DNA of 64,000 bases, from assembly GCA_046155885.1 (NCBI GenBank), contig JBJXFU010000013.1, forward strand, positions 1,070 to 65,069, written 5' to 3'. A program made the translations under genes and the position numbers. The notes beneath the pieces were generated by a model, which did not search any database, had not been told where the DNA came from, and saw nothing but the letters and a program-made list of their open reading frames with translations. Of this stretch, positions 26,158 to 34,155 are shown piece by piece. How positions within the stretch are numbered: position 1 is the first letter of the stretch; the number at the start of each line of letters is the position of its first letter. The DNA comes from Paracoccaceae bacterium. Lineage in GTDB: Bacteria > Pseudomonadota > Alphaproteobacteria > Rhodobacterales > Rhodobacteraceae.

Positions 26158-26471
26158 CTGGTCCCCCAACCAAGGATGTTCATGCCCGCACGGGACGAAC
26201 CGCCCGGCACACCCCACATCGACCGGAAAGCGGGGCGCCGTCAACGCCGGCGGGGCGGGCTATGCGGGCCTTCGCCGGTCGGGCCTACCGGACGCCGGAA
26301 ATCCGCCGACGGGCCCTTGACGGGGTATGCCCTGCGCGGCGATTCGCCGACCGCGTGGCGCACCAGCCGGCGTGCCGCCGCCTGCGTGCGGGGTCGCGGC
26401 AGGGATGCGTTAACCCCGATCCGGTAGGCAGGGTTCCCGAACGCCCCGCGATCCGGGGCCGGGGGCCCTGC

Positions 26472-27425
26472 ATGACCGCCTTGCCGCTGCTCGACGCCGA
26501 AGAACTTCGCACCCTGTCGGGCCTGGCCCGGCGCGCGCTCTGGGCGCCGCCTTCGGTGCGTGCCGCGCTGCAGGCGCAGAACGTGAACATCACCCCGGCG
26601 AACTTCTATTCGGCGATCCCCTCGATCGCCGAAATCGACCGGTCATGGGAGCACCGCCGCCCGGGCGAGGAGGTTTTCAACGGCGGGCTGTTCGATCCGC
26701 CGGCGCTTGCGGCCTGGCTTGACCGGCTGGCCCCCTTCGCAGACGAGTTTGACCCGCCTCTTGACCCGCCGGACCCGAAGGACGGCGGCGCGCCGGCCTT
26801 CCACTGGCGGAACCCGGCCTTTTCCTACAGCGATGCCCTGGCCTATTACTGCACGATCCGGGCGCTGCAGCCCGAGGGTATCGTCGAAGTCGGCGCGGGC
26901 TTTTCCACCCTGATCGCCGATCTGGCGCTGAGGCGGAACGGGCACGGCCGGCTGACGGTGATCGAGCCCTGGCCGAAGCCCTTCCTGCGCAAGCTCGAGA
27001 CGATCGGCAGTCTGATCGAGGAACCGGTGCAGGACGTTCCGCTGGCCCGTCTGGTCGGTCTGGTCGAAGAGGCCGGGCTGTGGTTCATCGATTCGACCCA
27101 TACGGTGAAGAGCGGCAGCGACTGCCTGTGGCTCTACCTCAAGGCGATGCCGGCCCTGTCACGCGAGGTGGTGGTGCATTCGCACGACATCTTCCTGCCC
27201 TTCGGGTTCCCCAAGGGGCCGATGCAGGAAAAGCAGATCTACTGGACCGAACAATATCTGCTCTACGCCTATCTGCTCGACAACCCGCGGGCCGAGGTGC
27301 TGTTTTCAAGCGCCTACGGCACGGCGCGCATGGCGGACCGGCTGGGCGCGTTCATGGGCGGGAAGTACCCGATGGGCGGGGGGTCGATCTGGTACCGCAT
27401 CCGTCCGAAGCGGGAGGCCGCCTGA
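26472..27425 (+). CDS. Class I SAM-dependent methyltransferase-like protein
   Basis: 317 aa from ATG 26472 (MTALPLLDAEEL). SAM motif I-like IVEVGAGFSTLIADLA, then WFIDSTHTVKSGSD. The track ORF upstream extension (from 26262) is Arg-rich. Confidence 0.7.
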   Translation: MTALPLLDAEELRTLSGLARRALWAPPSVRAALQAQNVNITPANFYSAIPSIAEIDRSWEHRRPGEEVFNGGLFDPPALAAWLDRLAPFADEFDPPLDPPDPKDGGAPAFHWRNPAFSYSDALAYYCTIRALQPEGIVEVGAGFSTLIADLALRRNGHGRLTVIEPWPKPFLRKLETIGSLIEEPVQDVPLARLVGLVEEAGLWFIDSTHTVKSGSDCLWLYLKAMPALSREVVVHSHDIFLPFGFPKGPMQEKQIYWTEQYLLYAYLLDNPRAEVLFSSAYGTARMADRLGAFMGGKYPMGGGSIWYRIRPKREAA

Positions 27426-27877: not shown

Positions 27878-28084
27878 TCAGAGCAGCTTGAGGTCCGAGG
27901 CCGACGAACGGCCGTCGCGGCCGGACTGCAACTCGTAGCTGACCTTCTGGTTGTCGTTGAGCGACTTCAGCCCGGCGCGCTCGACCGCCGAAACATGGAC
28001 AAAGATGTCCTTGCCGCCGTCATCGGGCGCGATGAAGCCGTAGCCCTTCGTCGAGTTGAACCACTTGACCGTTCCGGTGGCCAT
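27878..28084 (-). CDS. cspA: Cold-shock protein, CspA family
   Basis: 68 aa MATGTVKWFNSTKGYGFIAPDDGGKDIFVHVSAVERAG... with RNP1/RNP2 motifs. Confidence 0.95.
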   Translation of the reverse strand: MATGTVKWFNSTKGYGFIAPDDGGKDIFVHVSAVERAGLKSLNDNQKVSYELQSGRDGRSSASDLKLL

Positions 28085-28328: not shown

Positions 28329-28895
28329 CTAGCCCGGCGCCTCGCGCCCGAGGACGGCGCGGCGCAGCATGCGGTCGACAGAGAGCGCGCCGCCGCCGAG
28401 CGCGGCGAGGACGAGGAACAGAAGCACCCAGAGCGCCCGCTGGTCGAGGATCAGCGCCCCCGAGGCCGCGTCGAGCCAGCGCCCGAGATCGTCGCCGCTG
28501 ACGCCGTGCCCGTAGATGTCGGTGAGGCTCTGCACGAGGACGAAGCCGATCATCCCCAATGCGGCAAGGCGGGTGAAGGCGCCGGCCACGATGAGGAGCG
28601 GCAGGGCGAACTCGGCCCACATCCCGGCGGTGACGACCGCCCATTGCATGAGCCCTAGCTTCGAGACGTCATAGCCCGCGGCCTCGGTCAGGCGGGGGAA
28701 GACCTGGACATAGGCGCCGTCCGAGGGGAACAGGAACCCCAATGCGCCGGTCCCGAGTTTCGTCGCGCCGGAGGACCAGAAGTAGACGAGAAGCACCGCG
28801 GCGAAGCAGAGCCGTGCTGCCAGCGGCAGGAGCGAGGGGGCGAGCGCCGCACTACGGTCGCCGAGGTCGGCGAGACCGCGCAAGAGGGTGAACAT
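28329..28895 (-). CDS. bufD: DoxX-family membrane protein (BufD-like)
   Basis: 188 aa with 4 TM segments. It is the last gene of the DUF2282/DUF692/DUF2063 operon, and its ATG overlaps the upstream stop (ATGA). Confidence 0.8.
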   Translation of the reverse strand: MFTLLRGLADLGDRSAALAPSLLPLAARLCFAAVLLVYFWSSGATKLGTGALGFLFPSDGAYVQVFPRLTEAAGYDVSKLGLMQWAVVTAGMWAEFALPLLIVAGAFTRLAALGMIGFVLVQSLTDIYGHGVSGDDLGRWLDAASGALILDQRALWVLLFLVLAALGGGALSVDRMLRRAVLGREAPG

Positions 28896-29632
28896 CAGGG
28901 TTCTCCGTGAAGGATGCCGGTGACGGCGCTATGGCCGAGAAGCAGCGAGAGGGTTCCGGCGAACGCCTCCGGCCCCGGCATGGCGGCGACCGCGAGCGGC
29001 TCGCCCGCGAGCAGTGCCGCGAGGACGGTGCCGCCGCCCAAGGGCAGAAGGCAGGGTTCGGGGTCGAAGCCGCGCCTGAGGACGGCGATGTCCTCGGCGA
29101 TCTTCCGCGCCGGGGCGGGGGCGTCCCGGGTGTTCGCGGCCCAGATCGAGAAGACCGGCCAGGGCGAGCGGACGAGCCTTGCGGAAGGAGAGAGCGCGAG
29201 ACGGGTGGATTCAGGGGGAAGGTCGGGCAGGCGGGCCAGCGCGCCGGCGGAAAGGGGCGGGGCGTCGGCGGCGTGGTAGGAGTCGAGGATCGCCAGTTCC
29301 AGCCGCGCCACGTCGGGCAGGTAGCCCAGATGCGCGGCAGGTCCGAAGGCGGCGAGGAAATCGGGCATCGCCGCGCCGTACCCGGCCATCACCGGCGAGG
29401 AAGGCGGATGCTGGCGCAAGAAGATTCCGGCCATCGCCTTGAAGAAGTCCTCGCCCACAAGTTTCCTCAGGACCGGGAACTGGGTTTCGAGCGCCTCGGT
29501 CAGGCCGACAGCCACGTTGTTGCGGTAGACCGCGAAGCGCCGCCCGGCGGGCTCGCCCCCCGGGCCGCGAAGGTTCGCGGGCGGCGGCGCGTCGGGGTCG
29601 AGCAGCGCGGATCGGAACGCCGGTTCGATCAT
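28895..29632 (-). CDS. bufC: DUF2063-family protein (MNIO partner, BufC/HvfC-like)
   Basis: 245 aa from ATG 29632 ([13 protein letters not shown]). Contains [32 protein letters not shown], typical of DUF2063. ATGA overlap with the DUF692 gene. Confidence 0.85.
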
Positions 29633-30489
29633 CGCGACGCGCCTGCGAGGATGGACTGCGCCAGGCCGGCTTCCTGCGCAAGGACGGGCCAGTCCGGCAC
29701 GGCGTTGTCCCATTCGATCAGCGTCGGGCGCGCCCCGGCCTTGGCGATGACATGCGCGTAGAGCGACCAGACCGGGTCCGCGACCTCGCGGCTGTGGCTG
29801 TCGATCAAGAGCGGTGCGCCGAGGTCGTCGGTATCGGCGTCGTGGCCGCCAAGGTGGATTTCGCCCACCTCCGCAAGGGGGAAGGCGGCGATGTAGTCGC
29901 GGGGATCGAAGCGCAGGTTGGTGGCCGAGACGAAGACGTTGTTGACGTCAAGAAGAAGCCCGCAGCCGGTCCGGCGGGCGATTTCGGCGAGGAAATCGGT
30001 TTCGCTCATCCCGGCATCGGCGAAGATCAGATAGCTCGACGGGTTCTCCAGGAGCATCCGGCGGCCGAGCCGGTCCTGCACCTCATCGATATGCGCGGCG
30101 ACGCGGGCGAGGGTCGACTCGGTGTAGGGCAGCGGCAGGAGGTCGTTGAAGTAGGCGCCGTCATGGGTGGACCAGGCGAGGTGCTCGGAGAAGCTCGCGG
30201 GGGCGATCAGGTCGACCAGGCGCCGCAGTCGGGCGAGGTGGTCGCGATCCAGGGGGCCTTCGCCGCCGATGGACAGGCCGACGCCGTGAACGGATATCGG
30301 AAACCGCTCGGCCAGGTGGCGCAGCTGGGCGATCGGGCGGCCGCCGTCGCCCATGTAGTTCTCGGCGTGGATTTCCAGCCACCTGACCGCCCCGGGATCG
30401 GCCATGATGTCGGAAAAGTGCCGTGGCTTGTAGCCGACGCCCGGCGCGTCCGGCAGCCCGCGGCCTTCTGATCGGTCGAACATCGCCAT
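29629..30489 (-). CDS. bufB: DUF692-family multinuclear non-heme iron oxidase (MNIO; BufB/HvfB/MbnB-like)
   Basis: 286 aa from ATG 30489 (MAMFDRSEG). Motifs [47 protein letters not shown] and EIHLGGH are present. Confidence 0.9.
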
Positions 30490-30506
30490 CCCCCAAGGGT
30501 CGTCCG

Positions 30507-30530
30507 CCCCCGGGCGGCGTGGCCCGGGGG
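30507..30530 (-). promoter_or_regulatory. Perfect 9-bp GC stem-loop (CCCCCGGGC-N6-GCCCGGGGG) between precursor gene and MNIO gene
   Basis: Read directly. It sits in the 56-nt bufA-bufB spacer and has no U-tract after it. Confidence 0.45.
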
Positions 30531-30545
30531 TCGGCGCGGTCAGCC

Positions 30546-30836
30546 TCAGCCCTGCGGCAGGTCGCGGTCGAGGGCCTCGAGCGCGCCCATGCGGCCGTCG
30601 GGCAGTTCCATCGTGGTGCAGGTGCCGGCCGGGACGAGCTTCCAGGAATTGCCCTGGTAGTCGACCTTCGAGGTGCCCGCGCAGGTGGTGCCGGCGCCGG
30701 CGGCGCAGTCGTTCTTGCCGGCGAGCGACACGCCGAAGCATTTCTCCATATCGGCTGCGCTGGCCGCCGAGACGGTCAGGCCGGAAAGCGCGGTGGCGAG
30801 CGCCGTCGCAAGCAGGGCGCGGTTCGAAACGTTCAT
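30546..30836 (-). CDS. bufA: DUF2282-family secreted Cys-containing RiPP precursor (BufA/HvfA-like)
   Basis: 96 aa: [27 protein letters not shown]|[82 protein letters not shown] lies immediately upstream of ATG 30836. Confidence 0.88.
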
Positions 30837-30884
30837 CTTCTTCCTCCAGTGATATGGCGCCGTCGTGGCGTCCGTGGTTGTCCA

Positions 30885-30910
30885 TTCGGGACGGTGCCGC
30901 CGGTCGTTAC
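30885..30910 (-). promoter_or_regulatory. ECF (SigF-type) promoter GTAACG-N16-CGAA driving bufABCD
   Basis: On the minus strand, GTAACG is at 30910-30905, followed by an exact 16-nt spacer and CGAA at 30888-30885. It lies about 45 nt upstream of the bufA ATG. The same motif occurs on the opposite strand upstream of sigF. Confidence 0.55.
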
Positions 30911-30957
30911 CGGCGTCACGAAAGGGTGAATGGCTGGTGCATTTCCGCGCCCCTGTT

Positions 30958-30983
30958 GTAACGTTTCGCCCGTAACAGGCGAA
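30958..30983 (+). promoter_or_regulatory. ECF (SigF-type) promoter GTAACG-N16-CGAA driving sigF-nrsF (autoregulation)
   Basis: GTAACG at 30958-30963, a 16-nt spacer and CGAA at 30980-30983. It lies 17 nt upstream of the TTG 31000 start. Confidence 0.55.
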
Positions 30984-30999
30984 GTGAAGATTACCGGGA

Positions 31000-31551
31000 T
31001 TGTCCGACCGCGAACATCTCTGGGCCGAACTCATGCGCCGGGCGAACCGGGGCGATGCCGCAGCCTATGCGCGGTTTCTGTCCGAGTCGGCGCCTGTCAT
31101 TCGCGGTGTCGTTGCGGCTCGCGGCAGATCGCTTGGCGCGGAAGTCGAGGATGTGGTGCAGGAAGTGCTGCTTGCCGTTCATGCCAAACGCCATACCTGG
31201 CGCGAAGCGGATGCCCTGCTGCCGTGGCTTTATGCCATAGCCCGCTACAAGACCGCCGACGCGGCGCGCCGGCGGCGCGGGGGCGAGACGGTTCAGGTCG
31301 AGGAACTGGCTGACACCCTGCCGGCGGAGCCGGGGGGGGACCTGACGGCCGGGCGCGATATCGGACGGCTGCTCGGCCGGATCGACGGGCGCTCGGCGTC
31401 GATTGTCCGCGCGATCGGGGTCGAGGAGGAAAGCGCCGAGGCGGTGGCGATGCGGATGGGGATGACAGGGGGCGCGGTCCGGGTGGCGTATCACCGGGCG
31501 ATGACGCGGCTCCGCCGGCTGGCGGGTGCCGGGGAAGAGGAACGGGAATGA
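31000..31551 (+). CDS. sigF: ECF RNA polymerase sigma factor (SigF-like)
   Basis: 183 aa. Region 2 reads [17 protein letters not shown]...[12 protein letters not shown] and region 4 reads [32 protein letters not shown]. Start is TTG 31000, with ATG 31033 as an alternative. Confidence 0.85.
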
Positions 31552-32192
31552 AGACCGACGATCTGATCGCCGTGCTGGCCGCAGAAACCGGGACGGCAGG
31601 CACCTGGGCGGGCCTGCGGGGGACCGCGCTTTTGGCGGCGGGCGGCGGGCTGGGCGCGGCGCTTCTGATTTTCGCGCTGTTCTACGGGGTCAGGCCGGAC
31701 CTTTCTGTGGCGCTGCGCGACCCGATGGTGGCCTGCAAGACGCTGCTGCCGGCCCTGGCCGCGCTGGCCGCCCTGCCGCTGGCGCTTGGGGCGGCCCGGC
31801 CGGGCGCCGCCGCGCCGTCCCTTGCGAAGGCGGCCCTGGCTTTGCCCGTCATCGGCGCCGCGCTGGTTATCGCGGCCTGGGTGCAGACGGCCCCGGCGGA
31901 CCGGATGGTCCGGTTCATCGGCCATTCGATTCCGGTTTGTGTCCCCTCGATCATCCTGCTGTCGGCACCGGTCCTCGCAGGGCTTCTTGCGGTGCTGCGC
32001 TCTGGCGCTCCGGACCGGCCCGCCCGCTGCGGGGCCTTTGCCGGGCTTGCGGCGGGAAGTCTGGCGGCGGTGATCTACGGGTTCTACTGCAACGAGGATT
32101 CGCCGCTTTTCTACGTCTTCTGGTACGGCACCGGCATCCTTGCGGCGACCCTGATCGGGGCCTCCGCCGGATCGCGGCTTCTGCGCTGGTAG
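31548..32192 (+). CDS. nrsF: NrsF-family (DUF1109) membrane anti-sigma factor
   Basis: 214 aa with an [14 protein letters not shown]-terminus and 6 predicted TM segments. Its ATG overlaps the sigF stop (ATGA). Confidence 0.85.
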   Translation: MKTDDLIAVLAAETGTAGTWAGLRGTALLAAGGGLGAALLIFALFYGVRPDLSVALRDPMVACKTLLPALAALAALPLALGAARPGAAAPSLAKAALALPVIGAALVIAAWVQTAPADRMVRFIGHSIPVCVPSIILLSAPVLAGLLAVLRSGAPDRPARCGAFAGLAAGSLAAVIYGFYCNEDSPLFYVFWYGTGILAATLIGASAGSRLLRW

Positions 32193-32202
32193 GCGCCGGG
32201 GC

Positions 32203-34155
32203 TCAGGCCGTCCGCAGGTCGGGGGGAGTGGCTTCGGCTGCGAGCGCGGTCAGCGCGGCTTCGAGCGGCATCGGTGCGGTCTGTGACTCGCCGAGGCGGC
32301 GGACCGAGACCGTGCGCGCGGCGACTTCCTGCATGCCGATCGCCAGAAGCACCGGCACCTTGCCGATCGAGTGTTCGCGGACCTTGTAGTTGATCTTCTC
32401 ATTGCGCGTGTCGGCCTCGGCCCTCAGCCCGATGGCCTTCAGACGGTCGACGATCTCGGTCACGAAAGGGTCGGCGTCCGAGACGATGGAGGCGACGACC
32501 ACCTGCCGGGGGGCGAGCCAGAAGGGAAGGCGGCCCGCGTAGTTCTCGATCAGGATGCCGATGAAGCGCTCGAAGCTGCCGAGGATGGCGCGGTGCAGCA
32601 TCACCGGCGTGTGCTTCATCCCGTCTTCGGCCACATACTCGGCGCCAAGGCGCAGCGGCGTGTTGAAGTCGGCCTGGAAGGTGCCGCACTGCCATTCCCG
32701 GCCGATGGCGTCGGTCAGCTTGAAGTCGAGCTTGGGCCCGTAGAAGGCACCGTCGCCGGGGTTGATCGTGTAGGGGTAGCCGGCCTTTTCGATCGCCTGC
32801 GCGAGCGCGGTCTCGGCCTTGTCCCAGACCTCGTCCGAGCCGACGCGCACCTCGGGGCGGGTCGATAGTTTAATGTCGAACTTCGGGAAGCCGAGGTCCC
32901 GGTAGATCGACGACAGAAGCCCGAGGAAGCCGGCGCATTCCGCTTCGAGCTGGTCCACGGTGCAGAAGATGTGGGCGTCGTCCTGGGTGAAACCGCGCAC
33001 CCGCATCAGGCCGTGCATGGAGCCTGACGATTCGTAGCGGTGGCAGGAGCCGAATTCGGCCAGCCGCAGCGGCAGGTCGCGGTAGGACTTCAGGCCCTGG
33101 TTGTAGACCTGCACATGGCAGGGGCAGTTCATCGGCTTCAGCGCGTTGATGCGCTTTTCCTTGGCGCCCTCTTCGTCCACCTCGACCAGGAACATGTTCT
33201 CGCGGTAGGCCTCCCAGTGGCCCGACTTTTCCCAAAGGATGCGGTCCACGACCTGGGGCGTGCGGATTTCCTTGTAGCCGGCGGTGCGGAGACGGCGGCG
33301 CATGTAGTCTTCCAGCACACGCCAGATCGACCAGCCGTTCGGGTGCCAGAAGATCATGCCAGGGGCTTCTTCCTGGAGGTGGAAAAGCTCCATCTCGCGG
33401 CCGAGCTTGCGGTGGTCGCGCTTGGCGGCCTCTTCCAGCATGGTCAGGTGCGCCTTCAGGTCGTCGCGGTTCCTGAACGCCACGCCGTAGATGCGCTGGA
33501 GCTGCTTGTTGCGGTGGTCGCCCCGCCAGTAGGCCCCGGCGACCGAGGTGAGCTTGAAGGCGTCTGCGGGAAGCTGGCCGGTGTGCTGGAAATGCGGGCC
33601 CCGGCAGAGGTCCTGCCAGTGGCCGTGCCAGTACATCCGAAGCGGTTCGCCTTCGGGGATCGCTTCGACCAGTTCGACCTTGAAGGGCTCTTTCTTGCGC
33701 AGGTAGTAGTCGATGGCCCGCGCGCGGTCCCAGACTTCGGTCTTCACCGGATCGCGCGCGGCGATGATCGCCTTCATTTCCTTTTCGATGGCGGCCAGGT
33801 CGTCGGGCGTGAAGGGTTCGACGCGGTCGAAATCGTAGAACCAGCCGTTTTCAATGACCGGGCCGATGGTGACCTTCACCTCGGGCCAGAGCGTCTGCAC
33901 GGCGCGGGCCATGACATGGGCGAAGTCGTGGCGGATGAGTTCCAGCGCCTGGGCGTCGTCCTTCATGGTGTGGATGGCGATGGTGGCGTCGGCAGTGATC
34001 GGCCATTGCAGGTCGAAGTGGCGGCCGTCGACCTTGGCCGAGATCGCGGCCTTGCCGAGCGAGGGTGCGATTGCGGTCGCGACTTCGGCGGGGGTGACGC
34101 CGCGCGGGTAATCGCGCGTGTTGCCGTCGGGAAATGTCAGGGAAATCTGGCTCAT
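32203..34155 (-). CDS. thrS: Threonine--tRNA ligase
   Basis: 650 aa with a TGS domain N-terminus ([19 protein letters not shown]), class II motifs and an anticodon-binding C-terminus. Confidence 0.97.

Follow-up and report, generated by a model that had tools for sequence, protein, structure and literature searches.

A probable SigF-linked Buf1-type bufferin operon in an uncultured Paracoccaceae bacterium

Bufferins are described as the largest family of ribosomally made peptides with post-translational modifications (RiPPs) among those made with multinuclear non-heme iron oxidative (MNIO) enzymes, and comprise thousands of clusters. Leprevost et al. 2024 (PMC11626156) gave the definition of the Buf1-type cluster, bufABCD. 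Caulobacter vibrioides carries such a cluster, buf1 (bufA1B1C1D1; CCNA_03363-03366, which correspond to CC3254-3257). The genes sigF and nrsF (CC3253-CC3252) are its neighbours, and a SigF motif lies upstream of both units. Here we describe what is very probably an operon of the same type, bufA-bufB-bufC-doxX, with a SigF promoter and beside an autoregulated sigF-nrsF pair. It occurs in a stretch of 64,000 nt (hereafter, the window) of contig JBJXFU010000013.1 from a Paracoccaceae bacterium (GCA_046155885.1).

Several properties of the Caulobacter system are established. In C. vibrioides bufferin 1, only the second and third of four cysteines (CysII and CysIII) are converted to 5-thiooxazoles, with a loss of 4 Da each, while CysI and CysIV form a disulfide. 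The bufferin binds Cu(I)/Cu(II), and its loss leads to a copper phenotype. The operon is induced via SigF by copper, cadmium and chromate. Metal-responsive operons with the same DUF2282-DUF692-DUF2063-DoxX set are known as gig (gold-induced genes) in Cupriavidus metallidurans and Legionella pneumophila, and an orthologous operon in Bordetella pertussis is under BvgAS control.

The window has the same four genes in the same order as Caulobacter buf1. All lie on the reverse strand: bufA (30546..30836; 96 aa, ATG start), bufB (29629..30489; 286 aa), bufC (28895..29632; 245 aa) and doxX, or bufD (28329..28895; 188 aa). As in Caulobacter, sigF and nrsF are adjacent, here on the forward strand (31000..31551, 183 aa, TTG start, and 31548..32192, 214 aa). 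This comparison was made without direct alignment of the Caulobacter sequences. The open reading frames (ORFs) confirm the positions and sizes of all six genes given in a preliminary description of this DNA, and every Pfam family named there was matched above its curated cut-off in searches with hidden Markov models. A Shine-Dalgarno sequence, GGAGGA, stands 5 nt 5′ of the bufA ATG. The last three genes of the operon had been described as chained by ATGA overlaps. Such an overlap is present at the bufB/bufC junction, and also at sigF/nrsF, but the bufC/doxX junction is TGATG with a 1-nt overlap. Our direct observations, given in what follows, are the gene content and family membership, the catalytic and regulatory residues and the promoter motifs.

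BufA matches the Pfam family DUF2282 (PF10048) over residues 30-78 with 90.2 bits against a gathering threshold of 22.4, and its length is inside the 80-120 aa range that defines BufA1 precursors. Read from the sequence, residues 1-27 form a predicted signal peptide, with Arg6, hydrophobic residues from 8 to 22, and the sequence ADMEK after A25-S-A27. This leaves a predicted core of 69 aa, with a calculated average mass of 7053.9 Da. Among relatives, A27 is invariant and A25 is conserved in at least 90%. The Sec signal and the four cysteines in the 96-aa precursor, including one in a GTCTT context, were thus correctly recognised in the preliminary description. The cysteines are residues 33, 44, 52 and 73 (core positions 6, 17, 25 and 46). 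Their spacing of 11/8/21 is the same as that of Cys12/23/31/52 in C. vibrioides BufA1, which also has a Sec signal and has a core of 68 aa. The two proteins differ in that the part before CysI is shorter in the window BufA, and in that 23 rather than 16 residues follow CysIV.

In 131 representatives of 50%-identity clusters, conservation at the cysteine positions is 92-98%. We retrieved at least 7,992 BufA homologues, and an exhaustive search of 50%-identity representatives gave 1,225 clusters. A protein identical to BufA is present in NCBI, from a Paracoccaceae metagenome-assembled genome (MAG), and close relatives in NCBI/UniRef are already called “BufA1 family periplasmic bufferin-type metallophore”. 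The locus is an ordinary, intact member of the bufferin family that public annotation pipelines already recognise. The class had been called recent and unstudied in Rhodobacteraceae. It is no longer obscure, although we found no study in Rhodobacteraceae or Paracoccaceae in the literature searched.

The second gene encodes, as had been proposed, a DUF692 enzyme. BufB matches PF05114 (MbnB_TglH_ChrH) with 346.8 bits against a gathering threshold of 25, and it passes the NCBIfam equivalog NF050167 (MNIO_BufB, “MNIO family bufferin maturase”) with 379.2 bits against 310. It aligns with the solved MNIO structures 3BWW, TglH and MbnB, and its best sequence match in the PDB is 3BWW (E 5.6e-42). All nine iron-ligand positions of MbnB (H54, H90, E133, D163, N166, H192, D208, H210 and E239) are kept in BufB as H68, H103, E148, D181, N184, H212, D230, H232 and E259. 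For six of the ligands, the HMMER alignment to 7TCR gave the position. This alignment does not reach H68 and E259, which we assigned by motif, guided by the alignments to 7FC0 and 3BWW.

The enzyme’s proposed DUF2063 partner and the DoxX membrane protein are likewise matched above the Pfam cut-offs. In BufC, DUF2063 (PF09836) is N-terminal, at residues 5-93, and scores 92.4 bits against a gathering threshold of 27.2. A PDB sequence search gave no match for BufC or BufA; a LIM-domain hit at E 0.9 is noise. The DoxX match (PF07681) is marginal at 27.0 bits against 23.6, and the protein has four hydrophobic segments in a Kyte-Doolittle analysis. Orthologues of doxX, the last gene of the operon, occupy the same place 3′ of bufC in most of the related loci.

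We fetched eighty related genome loci for comparison. In roughly 70 of these, bufB and bufC come immediately after bufA, and the order bufABCD is kept in about 60. This arrangement is hard to reconcile with the notion that BufA is an unmodified small disulfide protein of the periplasm or membrane, and that the neighbouring enzymes act on another substrate. In Pfam, DUF2282 does carry the description “predicted integral membrane protein”, and a sizeable share of the Buf1 precursor genes in genomes are not beside an MNIO gene. However, the sole hydrophobic segment of BufA (Kyte-Doolittle) is its cleavable signal peptide, BufB passes the maturase equivalog with all iron ligands kept, and experiments in vivo and in vitro have demonstrated that BufBC modifies a homologous precursor. 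We regard an unmodified BufA as highly implausible. The preliminary description had the precursor’s cysteines converted to copper-binding heterocycles. The Caulobacter chemistry is confined to CysII and CysIII, with CysI and CysIV in a disulfide, so the picture of all four cysteines as modified ligands has to be narrowed.

Other MNIO systems resemble this one in part. The HvfABC/oxazolin system of Haemophilus and the EGKCG “captophorins” likewise combine an MNIO enzyme and a DUF2063-type partner with a Sec-exported cysteine precursor, and yield copper ligands. Recent work has assigned 5-thiooxazoles to these products too. Their precursors consist of EGKCG repeats, whereas the window BufA is a single four-Cys DUF2282 domain with one EKCFG and no EGKCG repeats. 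An Hvf/oxazolin identity was rejected on scores of 234.7 versus 360 bits for HvfB, 43.3 versus 142 for HvfC (a weak match of BufC) and 17.5 versus 80 for HvfX.

Methanobactin synthesis by MbnABC shares the enzyme superfamily and the iron-ligand set with BufB, and also turns cysteine into a copper-binding heterocycle. In that system, however, a short secreted precursor with a leader peptide becomes an oxazolone-thioamide product that serves extracellular copper acquisition, in contrast to the periplasmic buffering by bufferin. The MbnB equivalog was missed by BufB, with 59.4 versus 325 bits, and we rejected a methanobactin identity on this score. The NCBIfam ApyH and ChrH models reject BufB as well. 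A Buf2 identity was rejected because BufA, which has four cysteines, scores 20.3 bits against the 60 required by the equivalog for BufA2 (Buf2, BUF_6/12Cys), whose members have six or twelve. Given that BufB passes the bufferin equivalog and misses the Hvf and MbnB models, the cluster is of the Buf1 type, and neither of the Hvf/oxazolin nor of the methanobactin type. Of the earlier label “bufferin/Hvf-type”, only the first half can be kept.

The divergent genes encode the proposed sigma factor of the extracytoplasmic function (ECF) class and six-transmembrane DUF1109 anti-sigma factor. SigF is clearly an ECF sigma: Sigma70_r2 is matched with 32.2 bits against 24, and Sigma70_r4 falls just under its cut-off (22.2 versus 24.1). 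Its best NCBIfam match is PRK12512 (E 2.6e-51), with 173.9 bits against a cut-off of 198. The partner and the promoter point to the ECF16 subgroup. NrsF matches PF06532 with 159.7 bits (gathering threshold 26.8) and has six hydrophobic segments by Kyte-Doolittle. Its cysteines are at 63, 131, 161 and 181, and Cys131 and Cys181 are the residues that were mutated in Caulobacter NrsF.

The SigF consensus in Caulobacter is GTAACC-N16-CGAA, which is also found at the sigF promoter (Kohler et al. 2012, PMC3511200). We scanned the window for GTAACN-N15-17-CGAA, for which 0.31 matches are expected in 64 kb. There are exactly two, one per operon and divergent, and both read GTAACG-N16-CGAA, that is, with a final G where the Caulobacter hexamer has C. 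They lie within the 163-bp spacer between bufA and sigF. The putative promoter of bufABCD is at 30885..30910 on the reverse strand and begins 74 nt upstream of the bufA ATG, and that of sigF-nrsF is at 30958..30983 on the forward strand, suggesting autoregulation. The published control of the equivalent operon by SigF-NrsF under metal stress, which the preliminary description had mentioned, is thus matched here by the promoter consensus. A generic scan of the region for sigma-70 promoters found none, and it gave three terminator-like hits at chance level. No buf2 operon turned up in the window, in which no screen was aimed at buf2 genes.

The start of sigF is somewhat unusual. Its TTG codon is only about 16 nt past the CGAA −10 element, which leaves a very short leader with no clear Shine-Dalgarno sequence, and an in-frame ATG occurs 11 codons downstream.

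Comparable ECF16 pairs, of an ECF sigma co-transcribed with a six-transmembrane DUF1109 anti-sigma that carries two conserved cysteines, are known as BcrS-AbcS in Brucella, SigF-NrsF in Azospira and EcfF-OsrA in Bradyrhizobium. These respond to hypochlorous acid (HOCl) in Azospira and Brucella and to reactive oxygen species (ROS) in Bradyrhizobium, and they drive genes for MsrPQ and Met-rich peptides, but no bufferin operon. It could be argued from them that the SigF-NrsF pair in the window detects oxidants (HOCl, another reactive chlorine species, or ROS) and not metals, and that bufferin and DoxX serve in periplasmic defence against oxidant or thiol stress. NrsF signalling needs two cysteines, both of which are conserved here, DoxX homologues are connected with oxidative and sulphur stress, and the window NrsF is far under the Caulobacter-type equivalog cut-off.

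However, the only buf operon known to be controlled by SigF-NrsF is induced by metals and not by H2O2, t-butyl hydroperoxide, paraquat or diamide (PMC3511200), and the loss of bufferin is felt in the presence of copper. Moreover, MsrPQ and Met-rich peptides, on which the oxidant-responsive ECF16 regulons centre, are not among the six genes of the locus (no screen for them covered the rest of the window). Oxidant sensing therefore seems unlikely to us, and by analogy with Caulobacter we infer a metal as the inducing signal of this operon.

The related loci show that the regulation of bufABCD varies. About 40 loci of Paracoccaceae share a common synteny (hydrolase, thrS, bufABCD, cspA), and in nearly all of them bufA directly follows thrS. 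Only the window and a locus of the cultivable relative Pseudoruegeria sp. HB172150 (L023; our locus numbers begin with L) have sigF-nrsF between thrS and bufA, and in L023 the SigF motif is at the same offset (−74) from bufA. In the thrS-bufA gaps of the other loci, which we checked for divergent sigF-nrsF, there are unrelated ORFs instead. Gain or loss of the module has thus taken place at one fixed position in the chromosome. Other loci with a nearby sigF-nrsF belong to a paralogue type that lacks doxX and has lower BufB identity.

This second buf1-like type is alphaproteobacterial (L001, L012, L019, L022, L032, L040 and L054). Its BufB identity is about 60%, and sigF-nrsF usually lies at most a few kb away, in a divergent or a downstream position.

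The strict SigF motif occurs upstream of bufA in 7 of the 80 loci (background 0.0015 per 300 nt), and a relaxed motif does so in 7 of 30 syntenic loci. Loci with the SigF-like motif GTAA[CT]-N16-18-CG[AT]A upstream of bufA include a Gemmobacter MAG (L027), L016, L018, L037 and L043. Since sigF-nrsF is missing between thrS and bufA in these five, their motifs imply a SigF that is encoded elsewhere.

A second upstream element is far more common. In 26 of 30 syntenic loci, the palindrome CAC-N6-GTG lies between 84 and 138 nt upstream of bufA (the background is 0.05 per 180 nt). In its extended form, CAC(G)-N4-(C)GTG, it is often duplicated, with copies 15 bp apart and a further GTGA 11 bp on (e.g., in L003, L008 and L056). 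Albidovulum litorale (L009), which lacks sigF, has such tandem sites. The window has one copy, TTCACCCTTTCGTGA (30916..30930, reverse strand), which is 5 nt upstream of the SigF −35 element and is the sole occurrence of TCAC-N6-GTGA in the window. The palindrome is a probable operator of a putative regulator. To our knowledge, it fits none of the CRP/FNR, LexA, MerR/CueR, CsoR, Fur/Irr/RirA or OmpR-type boxes. Where the window has GTAAC, the loci without sigF have GTGAC, followed by a −10-like element of the GCTA type, which may point to a housekeeping-sigma promoter plus operator.

The frequency of the palindrome raises the question of whether SigF is a secondary or recent input in the window, with the main control exerted by a putative regulator at CAC-N6-GTG, as in the syntenic relatives without sigF. 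The scarcity of SigF-like motifs and of sigF-nrsF in the syntenic loci fits such an arrangement, as do the often two copies of the palindrome there and the retention of a copy so close to the −35 element. On the other hand, this copy is single and has an imperfect CACC half-site, the SigF −35 and −10 elements are perfect and placed at the offset seen in L023, and the scan of the region gave no sigma-70-type promoter. We consider it quite improbable that SigF has only a subordinate role. As a weaker of two possible novelties, the syntenic bufABCD operons of Paracoccaceae may have been switched between a SigF promoter and a putative palindrome-binding regulator.

Several observations weigh against a metal-responsive, SigF-controlled Buf1 operon in the window. 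Unlike their Caulobacter counterparts, SigF and NrsF are below the NCBI equivalog cut-offs (NrsF scores 106.8 versus 300 bits, in addition to the SigF value given above), so their signal specificity may differ, and ECF16 systems elsewhere sense ROS or HOCl. The conserved palindrome suggests additional or alternative regulation. The Pfam match of DoxX is marginal, and the Caulobacter DoxX is dispensable both for modification and for copper protection. Finally, the source is an uncultured MAG, in which the system is known from genes alone. Nonetheless, the preliminary interpretation is supported overall by homology, by catalytic and regulatory residues and by promoter motifs, and we believe with considerable confidence that the locus is a Buf1-type bufferin operon with a SigF promoter beside an autoregulated sigF-nrsF.

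We found a conserved structure between bufA and bufB. In the window, a hairpin at 30507..30530 (reverse strand) has a 9-bp stem of G+C pairs, a 6-nt loop and no T-run. Taken alone, it is no better than shuffled sequence (z −0.67). Among related loci from the set L002-L080, an unbroken hairpin with 9 bp or more occurs in the bufA-bufB spacer in 48 of 71, compared with 11 of 677 control windows (an RNAfold-based count). The stem sequences vary among loci, so that the structure is kept and not the sequence, and some hairpins are followed by a T-run. Hairpins that set the ratio of precursor to enzyme are a feature of other RiPP operons. By analogy, the hairpin probably attenuates read-through or stabilises the 3′ end of bufA, yielding more precursor than enzyme mRNA. 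Its conservation suggests that the stoichiometry of precursor and enzyme is set at the mRNA level.

The C-terminal segment of BufA (codons after CysIV for 23 residues, plus stop, at 30546..30614, reverse strand) is also conserved. The preliminary description had noted an acidic tail of 21 aa to which it could assign no role. The string it quoted has 20 residues, and 23 residues follow the last cysteine. The tail does have an excess of acidic residues (5, versus 2 basic ones), but is only mildly acidic. In 25 close BufA relatives, L78, P79, R82, G84, E87, R91, D92 and P94 are invariant. The motif P-x-G-x-x-G-S-L (residues 79-86) is kept family-wide, with conservation values of 0.74 for P79, 0.81 for G81, 0.81 for G84 and 0.80 for L86 among the 131 representatives, and outside the Pfam core no other non-Cys block is strongly conserved.

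The xRDLPxx end, seven residues long, is a common subfamily extension; about half of the family has it, and shorter members do not. It is less conserved among the same representatives (R91 0.51, P94 0.41). The 16 residues after CysIV in Caulobacter BufA1, which lack this extension, fit its absence from shorter members. The sequence comparison indicates that the tail is a conserved feature of the family and no peculiarity.

The AlphaFold2 model of BufA from a diverse alignment has a mean predicted local distance difference test (pLDDT) of 72.5, and of 87-89 for residues 61-90; a shallow alignment of close relatives gave an unusable model (mean pLDDT 47). The C-terminal segment is thus predicted to be an ordered part of a small protein. 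A Foldseek search with the BufA model found no similar structure in the PDB. According to published work, modification can do without the signal peptide, the core takes part in recognition, and DUF2063-associated RiPP recognition elements (RREs) show no evident leader motif. These reports make it reasonable to ask whether the C-terminal segment is a recognition sequence for the putative C-terminal RRE-like domain of BufC, an idea that we regard as speculative and rather doubtful. The segment may then be a follower-type element that is retained in the mature product. The motif can serve as a candidate for substrate recognition by BufC.

Based on the Caulobacter model, from which the chemistry, export route, copper binding and inducer are carried over, the system could work as follows. 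Under envelope stress, most likely from too much copper or from other metals that are thiophilic or redox-active, NrsF would let go of SigF, and Cys131 and Cys181 of NrsF probably take part in this release. SigF-RNA polymerase would then initiate at the two divergent GTAACG-N16-CGAA promoters, and the hairpin after bufA probably increases the ratio of precursor to enzyme mRNA. In the cytoplasm, a complex of BufC and the iron enzyme BufB would oxidise Cys44 and Cys52 of BufA (core Cys17 and Cys25) to 5-thiooxazoles. The precursor would be exported via Sec and cleaved by signal peptidase after Ala27, and a disulfide between the outer Cys33 and Cys73 would form in the periplasm. The 69-residue core is expected to fold around Cu(I)/Cu(II) and so buffer periplasmic copper. 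DoxX would have a putative role as an accessory membrane protein.

The flanking genes in the window are cspA (27878..28084) and thrS (32203..34155), both on the reverse strand. Beyond cspA, an ORF on the forward strand (26262..27425) has a Methyltransf_24 domain (42.7 bits). According to tblastn, it has no homologue in any of the related loci.

Few clusters of the bufferin family have been studied experimentally. The window contributes to this family an intact Buf1 operon, linked to SigF, of an uncultured member of Paracoccaceae. For specialists, modest leads come from the C-terminal motif, the hairpin and the dimorphism in regulation. In particular, related syntenic operons with two regulatory designs offer a natural system for studying how a metal-stress operon is rewired. 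Beyond this, the locus does no more than confirm that the buffering of periplasmic copper by thiooxazole peptides is a widespread trait of this bacterial family.

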